Positions 9,001 through 10,989 of a DNA stretch of 10,989 nucleotides are shown here, piece after piece. Every line of letters begins with the position of its first letter. The stretch's first letter is position 1. Position numbers: made by a program. Origin of the DNA: a virus (lineage: Duplodnaviria; Heunggongvirae; Uroviricota; Caudoviricetes); IMG/VR virus record IMGVR_UViG_2657245131_000006. One strand, 5' to 3'.

Positions 9001-10989
9001 AAGCCTTTGTTTCGCATATAATTACCTCGCTGGATGTTGTTAAAATTCCATTTGTATTTGATCAGAACGCTCGGTCTTGCACACCGGGCGTTTTTTATTG
9101 GTGAGTCCATCAAGCGCATACTTAAAAGCCCTGCTAATCGGACTGATGTCTGATGCCATTCCGAAAGCACACAAGACCGAAGCAATAAACCTCCAGTCCG
9201 TTCTGCTTATCTTCGATTCATGACAGCCAATCATCTTTGCCAGACCGCGCTGGGTAAGCGTTGACAGGTTGATGAGTAAATCTGTTTCTGCGCGATCAAC
9301 GTCGCGCTGTGATAGTTTGCTGTAACTTGTTTGTTCCATTTCTTACTATTTCCATAGGTAAATAATCACTAATACTCATCTTTCGATGAGTTCTTAATTA
9401 GTTACCGCGTTGTCGGCGGTGCAGATTGATAAAGAGCGGTGTTACTTATGCAGCCAGAAGGTTCTTTTTGCTTATTTCAAGCATTTCGCTTGCTTGATAT
9501 TTGCCACCAGAAATCTCTTCGATTTTTGATGCGTATTTAGTTTTCCCAAAAAACTCAGTCTTAGGGAGGAAGCCGTTTTTGAGCCACTTATAGACAGCCC
9601 TTTCGCTAACTCCACAAGCCTTCGCAACTTCAGGGATGCCGACACCTTTAATCGGCTCATCAAGATTTTGCATAGGAATATCCTTTTTCGTACTTTCAGT
9701 ACGTATTATGGTTGAACTGAAAGTTTTTGCAAGTGCTTTAGTATCGTACTCATGGTTCAGAATGAAAAAGTGCGCAAAGAATTCGCCCAGCGGCTAGCGC
9801 AAGCCTGTAAAGAAGCTGGTCTTGATGAACATGGTAGGGGGATGGCCATAGCCCGTGCCCTTTCTCTTTCGTCCAAAGGCGTTAGCAAATGGTTTAATGC
9901 TGAGTCTTTACCGCGTCAGGAAAAAATGAATGCGCTTGCGAAATTTCTAAATGTTGATGTTGTTTGGCTTCAGCACGGCACTTCGTTAAATGGGGCGAAT
10001 GATGAAGATACTCTTTCATTTGTTGGCAAATTAAAAAAAGGGTTAGTGCGCGTGGTTGGTGAGGCAATTCTTGGTGTTGATGGTGCCATCGAGATGACCG
10101 AAGAGCGCGATGGGTGGCTCAAGATTTATAGCGATGATCCAGATGCCTTTGGTCTTCGTGTGAAAGGAGACAGCATGTGGCCCAGAATAAAATCAGGAGA
10201 ATATGTACTCATTGAGCCTAACACCAAAGTATTCCCGGGTGATGAGGTGTTTGTCAGAACCATTGAAGGGCACAACATGATCAAGGTTCTTGGCTATGAC
10301 AGAGACGGAGAATACCAATTTACAAGCATTAACCAAGACCACAGGCCAATAACGTTACCTTATCATCAAGTAGCAAAGGTGGAGTATGTGGCTGGTATTC
10401 TGAAGCAGTCTCGCCATCTGGATGACATCGAGGCAAGGGAGTGGCTGAAAAGTTCGTGACTTCATCGTCACATAGCTGGTAACCAGTGGCCAGAAGAAAC
10501 GTTTGGGTGAGGAGGATAGATGGCGTTCACTGACCTTGAATATCAAGCGGTCAAAAAAGAAGTTCACCAATTCATTGAAAGCATAAGGCCGCCTGAACAT
10601 ATCCGCAATGAACTGGATATTGTTTATAGCATCAATGACCAAACGATAGATATCGGCGAACAGCGCCCCGTGTGGCAGGGCAATCCAGGTGAAACAAACA
10701 TCCTGCCATCAGCAAGAATCAAGTACATACGTTCTCTGGATAGATGGAAAATCTATTGGATGCGGAAGGATATGAAATGGCATCAGTACAGTACTGAACT
10801 TTCGCTGACTGATGCGCTTGAGCTTGTGCGTGCTGACCCGGATTGCTGCTTCTTCGGATGAGTGAAGAGACGTTTGGGTGATAGGAAGTAAGTTTTATGT
10901 TGACGGCACAGTCAACTTGGCATAGATTAATTAAACCAAGCCCAGCCCCGTTCGCAGACAATTGTTAATATCTGCATAACGGCTCTGGG

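Follow-up and report, generated by a model that had tools for sequence, protein, structure and literature searches.

Behind the cI repressor gene of a Shiga toxin (Stx) phage, a small gene lies between two nearly identical 18-base sequences. What are these repeats, and how did the gene come to stand between them? The locus is part of a stretch of 10,989 nucleotides (nt), here called the window, from the Caudoviricetes record IMGVR_UViG_2657245131_000006 of IMG/VR, and the gene encodes a DUF3024 protein. A first reading, made from the sequence only, had described an accessory gene in the cI operon that was bracketed either by a target duplication from an insertion or by a conserved linker used for module exchange. 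We find that both 18-mers are relics of lambda-type cI 3' ends, consisting of the last five codons and the stop, and that the hypervariable cargo slot that lambdoid phages carry between cI and N has the cI stop codon as its left edge. It is very probable that the whole arrangement is explained by cI-tail scars, module exchange, and a selected lysogen accessory gene. The locus is a clear instance of known lambdoid mosaicism around a known, uncharacterized gene and presents no new mechanism.

The window is the early region of a Shiga toxin phage. Across 9400-10989, it shares 100% identity with a set of Stx2a-converting phages, LC616031 among them, and across 10460-10989 with a prophage of Escherichia coli O121 RM8352.

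The 18-base repeats are relics of cI gene ends

The two copies are direct repeats that agree at 17 of 18 positions and start 371 nt apart, and their coordinates and identity are as first reported. They are the only matches to the 18-mer in the window at ≤3 mismatches, compared with about 0.01 matches expected by chance (mean of shuffled sequences, 0.01; none of 200 shuffles gave two). Split into triplets, both copies read GAA GAR ACG TTT GGG TGA, or Glu-Glu-Thr-Phe-Gly-stop. The sequence-only reading had missed that the repeat is repressor coding sequence, namely, the native EETFG-stop end of lambda-type cI. The lambda record gives the 3' end of cI as ...atcgctagtcagtggcctGAAGAGACGTTTGGCTGA (also given as ...ATCGCTAGTCAGTGGCCTGAAGAGACGTTTGGCTGA), and the 18-mer takes the forms GAAGAGACGTTTGGCTGA, GAAGAGACGTTTGGGTGA, and GAAGAGACGTTTGGGTAA at the cI ends of lambda, 2B8, and VT2-Sakai, respectively, with the VT2-Sakai translation having the C terminus ...VIASQWPEETFG. 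In each case, these nucleotides, in the frame E-E-T-F-G-stop, close a repressor gene of the helix-turn-helix (HTH)/S24 type, and many other lambdoid repressors have the same last codons.

Copy 1 keeps additional repressor-tail sequence upstream, CAGTGGCC (QWP). The 27 bases at 10484-10510 (CAGTGGCCA plus the 18-mer) read QWPEETFG-stop, a relic of a lambda-type cI tail that matches the cI ends of lambda and 2B8 at 89% and 96%, respectively, by blastn. This relic closes a noncoding scar that follows the window's cI, which has its own TGA stop at 10457-10459, and the same scar is found 3' of the 933W-type cI in BP-4795, AU5Stx1, mEp506, and Min27.

In the cI transcript, this UGA is followed by C, a weak termination context, and by 16 in-frame sense codons (LHRHIAGNQWPEETFG) before a second UGA (window 10457-10510). 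Read-through would add a lambda-like C terminus to the 933W-type repressor, but the signal is probably a coincidence because the first part of the 16 codons resembles the lambda cI-rexA spacer and not coding sequence.

The cI stop codon is the edge of a cargo slot

Viral contigs, scanned for exact matches to the 18-mer, gave more than 120 loci, and 123 instances were classified. Long in-frame repressor ORFs (open reading frames) end in the 18-mer in 64 of them, another 24 follow a 933W-type cI as relics, and one closes a DUF3024 unit. Across the 123 instances, similarity stops exactly at the stop codon of the tail. The sequence after the stop comprises at least 26 different 25-mers behind true cI ends and at least nine behind the 933W relic, and the ORFs that come first downstream form 33 protein clusters. 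These include BstA (PADLOC, 1e-123), KilA-N/BstA-like proteins, the HigB toxin, SocA/Panacea, DUF6932 (PDC-M63A), DUF3800 (PDC-M04A), and ParA-like and NYN-like proteins. In named phages, the tail is followed by rexAB (lambda), a HigB-like pair (BP-4795), HicAB (mEp506), or an NYN-like gene (2B8). The recurrence of the 18-mer at equivalent boundaries in related phages, which the sequence-only reading had proposed as a check, is thus borne out: the repeats coincide with module boundaries, and the conserved linker for module exchange is the fitting one of the two origins first offered. The same reading had looked for different cargo genes between two copies, which is not the pattern found; cargo follows a single copy, and a second copy is regular only with the DUF3024 unit.

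The modular theory of lambdoid phages is reportedly that of Susskind and Botstein. The cI-N interval is described as a mosaic hotspot and a moron site (Degnan 2007, as cited in PMC8585504 and PMC7067206). The present locus resembles lambdoid mosaic joints and boundary linkers in that variable cargo lies directly behind the repressor and exchange occurs at short conserved gene ends, and it resembles the moron hotspot in that cargo is expressed with cI in the lysogen, with RexAB, BstA, and Stk filling the same slot. It differs from those linkers in that the linker is named exactly, as the last five codons plus stop of a lambda-type cI, and in that the tail persists as noncoding, sometimes stacked scars behind unrelated repressors and 3' of DUF3024. 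A literature search largely without subscription journals found no published account of the tail relic (WPEETFG, DUF3024).

In Stx, lambda-like, and P22-like phages alike, the cI-N slot is bounded on its left by the stop-proximal 18 nt of lambda-type cI, and tail relics are a record of earlier immunity swaps. A search for the tail locates lysogen-expressed cargo of lambdoid prophages, including validated defense genes (BstA) and toxin-antitoxin genes, and helps to reconstruct how the Stx phages of O121, O157, and other Shiga toxin-producing E. coli were assembled from resident prophages.

An empty site and a crossover inside copy 2

The matches of the window to other phages (Table 1) break at 10510, 10863/4, and 10882, with homology to BP-4795, Stx1a phages, and mEp506 stopping at 10510-10512. 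The two AU5Stx1 matches have 19 nt in common (2533-2551 of its locus), and a single tail aligns to both window copies. Such an overlap is the signature of an indel bounded by direct repeats, and AU5Stx1 therefore represents an exact empty site for the 371-bp unit. The gene is thus precisely absent from a collinear relative, as is asked of a moron.

The window is a recombinant, because the sequence after the DUF3024 gene is GAGTGAAGAGACGTTTGGGTGATAGGAAGT here but GAGTGAAGAGACGTTTGGATGATGGATGGTCGCAGAG in Min27/933W, and the sequence after cI in 2B8 and AU5Stx1 is (A/T)GAAGAGACGTTTGGGTGATAGGAAGT, preceded by GGCC. The crossover lies inside copy 2, within a 15-nt identity (TGAAGAGACGTTTGG), and its parents were 933W/phi24B-like on the left and Sp1/2B8/AU5Stx1-like on the right. 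The Sakai Sp1 prophage carries an identical cI tail and downstream segment (100%, starting at 10863/10864).

The segment from the right parent includes the 5' portion of a long hairpin with a U-run behind it, continuing past the end of the window (fold, -37.4 kcal/mol; z, -2.5), and this hairpin is the probable terminator of the cI-DUF3024 transcript. The second ATG that had been noted behind copy 2 does open a 23-codon ORF on the plus strand, although it lies at 10897 and not at 10898 (ORF, 10897-10968; stop, 10966-10968). A PHROG search gave no match for this ORF or for the minus-strand ORFs at 10355-10642 and 10719-10961, and antisense genes were rejected on the lack of family matches for the latter two. 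A structured RNA was likewise rejected, as Rfam gave no credible match in the region from cI through DUF3024 to the NYN-like gene (sole hit, E 0.36, to a human long noncoding RNA family).

A promoter scan marks TTGACG-17-TAGATT (10900-10928) just upstream of the hairpin and U-run, which extend to 7603 of the LC616031 locus. This promoter-like and hairpin stretch recurs unchanged after the cI of 2B8, AU5Stx1, and Sakai Sp1; it could encode a small RNA of ~65 nt or simply terminate the cI transcript. The first gene past the window end (7610-8467 of the LC616031 locus, where window position 10989 is 7590) encodes a 285-aa (amino acid) protein of phrog_5783 with weak NYN-nuclease/LabA-like signals (TIGR00288, 5.5e-07; PADLOC NYN, 0.0014, and HEC-09, 0.0002). 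The NYN-like gene, which lies directly behind cI in 2B8, is a further uncharacterized occupant of the cI-N slot.

Table 1. Features of the window and its blastn matches to other phages
Feature	Window position	Strand	Remarks
cI repressor, 933W/phi24B immunity type, 235 aa	9752-10459	+	HTH_3 + Peptidase_S24, phrog_4
Noncoding scar behind cI	10460-10510 (51 bases)	+	10460-10483 resembles lambda cI-rexA spacer
Repeat copy 1, GAAGAAACGTTTGGGTGA (EETFG-stop)	10493-10510	+	Left boundary of DUF3024 unit
Shine-Dalgarno sequence GGAGG	10511-10515	+	4 nt before ATG, directly after copy 1; conserved in Min27, SE1, Erwinia
DUF3024 gene, 113 aa, 13.5 kDa, ATG start	10520-10861	+	Orthologue of phi24B vb_24B_13c, 933W p24
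Repeat copy 2, GAAGAGACGTTTGGGTGA	10864-10881	+	Right boundary of DUF3024 unit
Sp1/2B8-type post-cI segment	10882-10989	+	100% identical to sequence right behind cI in 2B8, Sakai Sp1
Match to Min27	9700-10882		98% (blastn)
Match to BP-4795, mEp506	10006-10510/12		94-96% (blastn)
Match to AU5Stx1	10006-10510		95% (blastn)
Match to AU5Stx1	10863-10989		100% (blastn)
Match to VT2-Sakai	10483-10882		81.5% (blastn)
Match to Salmonella phage SE1	10501-10885		85.6% (blastn)
Match to 2B8	10864-10989		100% (blastn)

Tails stack without cargo, and the DUF3024 unit moves

A second copy of the 18-mer, sought at ≤3 mismatches in the fetched loci, is present in 24. Fourteen of these show the DUF3024 spacing of 371 nt, and the other 10 have copies 87, 125, or 213 nt apart (five, four, and one loci, respectively) with no gene between them. 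Stacking therefore arises without any cassette, and the gene-free stacked tails are layered scars of successive repressor replacements. Several stacked loci keep GTGGCCT before each copy.

The intact unit was found, among the loci compared, behind five repressor clusters, genuine lambda cI included, and before six clusters of downstream first ORFs; the window's NYN-like gene is an additional downstream context. Degraded tails flank DUF3024 in SE1 (GCCTGATGAGACCGCTTGAGGATAGG downstream), in VT2-Sakai, and in an Erwinia prophage remnant whose DUF3024 protein has 59% aa identity. The remnant has AGTGGCCAGAAAAAGGCGTTCGGTTTAA upstream and GGCCGGTAGAGACGTTCGGGTGA plus the GGTCGCAGAGGTGCGG hairpin downstream, a hairpin that comes after cI tails in many phages. 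Hence, the tail duplication is old and moves together with the gene.

On the Erwinia aphidicola chromosome (3071-6130 of the locus), DUF3024 is followed by a 153-aa ORF, a Pkinase gene (348 aa), and a 47-aa ORF, the order of 13c-res-stk-12c in 933W/phi24B. No repressor adjoins this module, whose neighbors are dinI and a phage tail gene. The association of DUF3024 with the Stk module may go back further than the E. coli phages indicate.

The phage of LC616031 also has a second, partial immunity region ~3.9 kb downstream (8832-11450 of its locus). It contains a truncated cI 3' end (10694-10993; 300 nt, 97% identical to 6770-7069) and a tail relic of the AU5Stx1 type (11018-11035). The post-tail segment recurs there as well, together with a copy of the NYN-like gene that has an internal deletion, and IS629-like ORFs (9418-10631, minus strand) stand between the two immunity regions. 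The region resembles the footprint of a recombination between two prophages, and the truncated cI with its tail appears to capture a displaced repressor gene partway through erosion to its tail.

The DUF3024 gene is selected, and its orthologue is expressed in lysogens

The gene itself is as first described, a 113-codon ORF with a strong Shine-Dalgarno (SD) sequence, on the same strand as cI and 60 nt downstream. The hidden Markov model search that had been suggested for its product assigns it to Pfam DUF3024 (PF11225; E 2.4e-31, 108.7 bits against a gathering threshold of 24.9, residues 4-113 on profile positions 2-112), to phrog_3467 (E 4.5e-67, 1-113/113), and to PDC-S43 of PADLOC, a single-gene phage defense candidate (E 7.2e-42, 1-113 on 1-115/115). 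The family comprises 1,313 clusters at 50% identity, mostly stand-alone proteins of ~115 aa with an invariant MAF N terminus, a W-K-[IL]-Y-W-x-R strand, and a C-F-[FW]-G C terminus. At least 207 of 5,426 complete E. coli genomes have a DUF3024 gene with the flanks described here. The closest relatives are vb_24B_13c of phi24B (111/113 identical), p24 of 933W, and pMIN27_25 of Min27, which share the same cI, spacer, and copy 1. They differ in what comes next: there, res (RuvC-like), stk, and a small ORF follow the gene before tRM, whereas here the Sp1/2B8-type segment and the NYN-like gene follow copy 2.

The gene is under purifying selection, with a ratio of nonsynonymous to synonymous substitution rates of 0.145 against the copy of Salmonella phage SE1. 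The VT2-Sakai copy (2539-2880 of its locus) is an unannotated pseudogene of 81.5% identity with two 1-nt deletions and an in-frame stop, and this 81.5% class is common to many O157 Stx2 phages in the blast table. As it is selected elsewhere but frameshifted in VT2-Sakai, the gene is selected yet dispensable. Its base composition is even with its surroundings (G+C of 0.44-0.48 across cI, the DUF3024 gene, and the flanks), so it lacks the distinct composition that marks morons, and a compositional signature of foreign DNA was rejected.

In phi24B, vb_24B_13c is annotated in the PRM operon cI-13c-res-stk-12c-tRM. A two-dimensional gel of phi24B yielded a spot, P3, of 13472 Da that was recorded as "similar to p24 of 933W" (Riley 2012, PMC3342100), and the calculated mass of vb_24B_13c, 13472.2 Da, matches it exactly. 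In the same study, P2 and P3 map downstream of cI, are the sole ones confined to stable lysogens, and have transcripts far above cI. The fold change of vb_24B_13c on induction was 0.65, compared with 1.23 for cI, 1.81 for stk, and 98 for exo (Veses-Garcia 2015, PMC4651098). Expression from a repressed prophage, a further mark of a moron, is thus found in the literature for the 98% identical phi24B orthologue only. Through this orthologue, the proposal of a lysogen-expressed accessory gene in the cI (PRM) operon slot, the place of rexAB in lambda, is supported. The companion example of sieB does not hold for the cI-N slot, as sieB of the P22-like phage SE1 lies beyond gene 24 on the opposite strand.

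No promoter-like or terminator-like site is predicted on the plus strand between cI and the DUF3024 gene. Unlike a moron with its own promoter and terminator, the gene has no promoter-like site, though a terminator-like hairpin lies downstream. Because no site separates the two genes and a hairpin with a U-run follows copy 2, the operon here likely consists of cI and DUF3024 and ends before the NYN-like gene.

A possible exclusion or defense factor

In the literature searched, there is no functional report for DUF3024 or vb_24B_13c, and the only paper to mention PDC-S43 lists it in a genome. The AlphaFold2 model of the protein has a pLDDT (predicted local distance difference test score) of 89.5, and fold comparison gave no confident match, PsiB scoring no better than frataxin or actin-capping folds. 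No conserved neighbor was found among 80 distant relatives from many phyla, and guilt by association was rejected on this ground and on the rarity of fusions. The rare apparent fusions among the representatives join DUF3024 to an XRE-type HTH (254 aa) or to DUF6933 (283 aa), and the former hints at a tie to repressor-like DNA-binding domains.

We hold with low confidence that the protein is a small nonenzymatic alpha-beta sandwich that binds a partner protein in the lysogen. The leading guess, a tentative one, is a single-protein superinfection-exclusion or defense factor. Like the validated abortive-infection genes lambda RexAB, BTP1 BstA, and 933W Stk, the gene lies downstream of cI on the PRM transcript and would be active in the lysogen. 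The protein differs from theirs in having, at 113 aa, no catalytic or membrane features and no reported phenotype. PADLOC, fold comparison, and an alignment with the sHex fragment revealed no sequence or fold homology to RexAB, BstA, Stk, or Hex.

Our second guess, which we consider unlikely, is that DUF3024 is not a defense gene but a modulator of lysogeny that acts on the repressor or on RecA, like 434 Hex or PsiB, with a Hex-like effect on induction and SOS behavior. Hex, a precedent for such a role, blocks RecA-stimulated repressor cleavage (PMC3564112). It is likewise a small accessory protein whose gene comes immediately after the repressor gene on the PRM mRNA, but that gene overlaps the cI coding region, whereas DUF3024 is separate with its own SD sequence. 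The position of DUF3024 fits this idea, always immediately behind the stop codon of five different S24-type repressors while the genes after it vary, as do the XRE-type HTH fusion and the nearby dinI gene of the Erwinia copy. However, the published sHex fragment has no sequence similarity to DUF3024, and a relationship to Hex was rejected because the two do not align; the PsiB match is equaled by the frataxin and actin-capping folds; relatives in many phyla have no adjacent repressor or conserved neighbor; and the VT2-Sakai pseudogene shows stable lysogeny without DUF3024. DUF3024/PDC-S43, found in at least 207 complete E. coli genomes and already detected as a lysogen protein, is a cheap target for a defense or induction assay.

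Proposed origin of the arrangement

The cI-tail identity of the repeat, its boundary role, the empty site, the crossover position, and the mobility of the unit are joined by the following account. Near-identical tails across repressor alleles would provide a short homology patch for module exchange, and each replacement of a module could leave the old tail as a scar. Copy 1 is probably such a scar, dating from the arrival of a 933W-type cI, complete with its own stop, before the former lambda-type tail. The founding event would have placed an SD sequence and DUF3024 right after a cI stop, upstream of another cI tail and a terminator, and its outcome would be the 371-bp unit tail-SD-DUF3024-tail, in which copy 2 travels with the gene and which has since moved behind at least five repressor alleles. 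In the O121 Stx2a phage of the window, the right joint stems from the crossover inside copy 2, between a parent with the layout tail-DUF3024-tail-res-stk and one with the layout cI-tail-small ORF-hairpin-NYN-like gene. Exchange may have proceeded by short-homology recombination, of phage Red/RecT type or illegitimate, with the enzyme being our conjecture. In the window's phage, DUF3024 would share the PRM transcript of cI, as has been shown for its 98% identical counterpart in phi24B, and would use its own strong SD sequence for translation.

Several points weigh against this account. Neither the direction nor the mechanism of the founding event can be observed, and a staggered illegitimate insertion that duplicates ~18-23 nt would look the same. 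Copy 2 stays at 16-18/18 in several E. coli lineages and in Erwinia, although the gene has diverged to ~65% nt identity; passive decay does not predict this conservation, which needs repeated conversion against real tails or some selection. The expression data come from phi24B and not from the window's phage, and the MASCOT score of P3 was not flagged as significant.

A bolder combination appears improbable to us, in which the tail is a maintained, portable socket of ~18-23 nt for plugging cassettes into the lysogenic transcript and DUF3024 is a new single-protein, nonenzymatic exclusion or lysogeny-control factor. If true, it would amount to an integron-like economy without an integrase, with cassettes passing into and out of the strongest lysogenic transcript by short-homology recombination. 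Every repressor allele would have one tail at its end or following it, and a further tail would stand 3' of DUF3024, the most widespread occupant.

It also seems quite improbable that the 18-mer is a functional site kept by selection in both places, whether for the processing or stability of RNA, for the binding of a protein to the PRM transcript, or as a dedicated docking sequence for recombination through which phages acquire and shed PRM-operon cassettes. Selection would account for a copy 2 at 16-18/18 of consensus beside DUF3024 genes that differ by 2-35%, for noncoding relics that are well kept behind 933W-type cI in many phages, and for the use of copy 2 by the crossover that built the window's phage, but the downstream relics of SE1 and VT2-Sakai have decayed to ~11-13/18, and stacked relics span every degree of decay. 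Moreover, the copies are direct repeats and cannot pair with each other, the 18-mer has no Rfam family, and conservation is explicable by coding constraint in true cI tails together with frequent recombination with them.

The target duplication first considered, with the DUF3024 cassette as a discrete mobile element that inserted at the cI end by its own mechanism, would suit a precise presence/absence pattern (a single copy where the unit is absent, two where it is present) and a unit that occurs in many genomic backgrounds, but it is highly unlikely in the sense of a transposon: the supposed target is part of the normal coding sequence of cI, as 64 true gene ends show, and thus not arbitrary; tails are duplicated without cargo at 10 loci; inverted repeats were not found at the unit ends; and no transposase or integrase ORF fits the 353-nt interior, which is filled by the DUF3024 ORF, the minus-strand ORFs having no family match. 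To our knowledge, a duplication of 18-23 nt matches no known transposase class. The flank of the AU5Stx1 tail, gatagccagtggcct, also differs from that of window copy 1, ggtaaccagtggcca, and AU5Stx1 is therefore not a simple preinsertion or excision state of the window's lineage. Left and right flanks vary independently, as homologous exchange predicts.

Other features of the window

The window's cI is 98% identical to its counterparts in Min27, 933W, and phi24B, and the match with Min27/phi24B spans 9700-10882. According to the phi24B annotation, cI is leaderless from PRM. A recombination breakpoint lies within cI, near window position 10006: BP-4795, AU5Stx1, and mEp506 have the S24 (C-terminal) half and the scar in common with the window at 94-96% identity, whereas their N-terminal DNA-binding half differs.

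The minus strand of the window carries cro, cII, O, the primase-helicase P, NinB, an HNH gene, a methyltransferase, and three anti-repressor-like genes. The last three, of 226, 224, and 121 aa (phrog_63, phrog_377, and phrog_2379), occupy 289-2343 at the distal end of the rightward early operon, and the 121-aa ORF looks like an N-terminal fragment or a paralogue of the 224-aa ORF.

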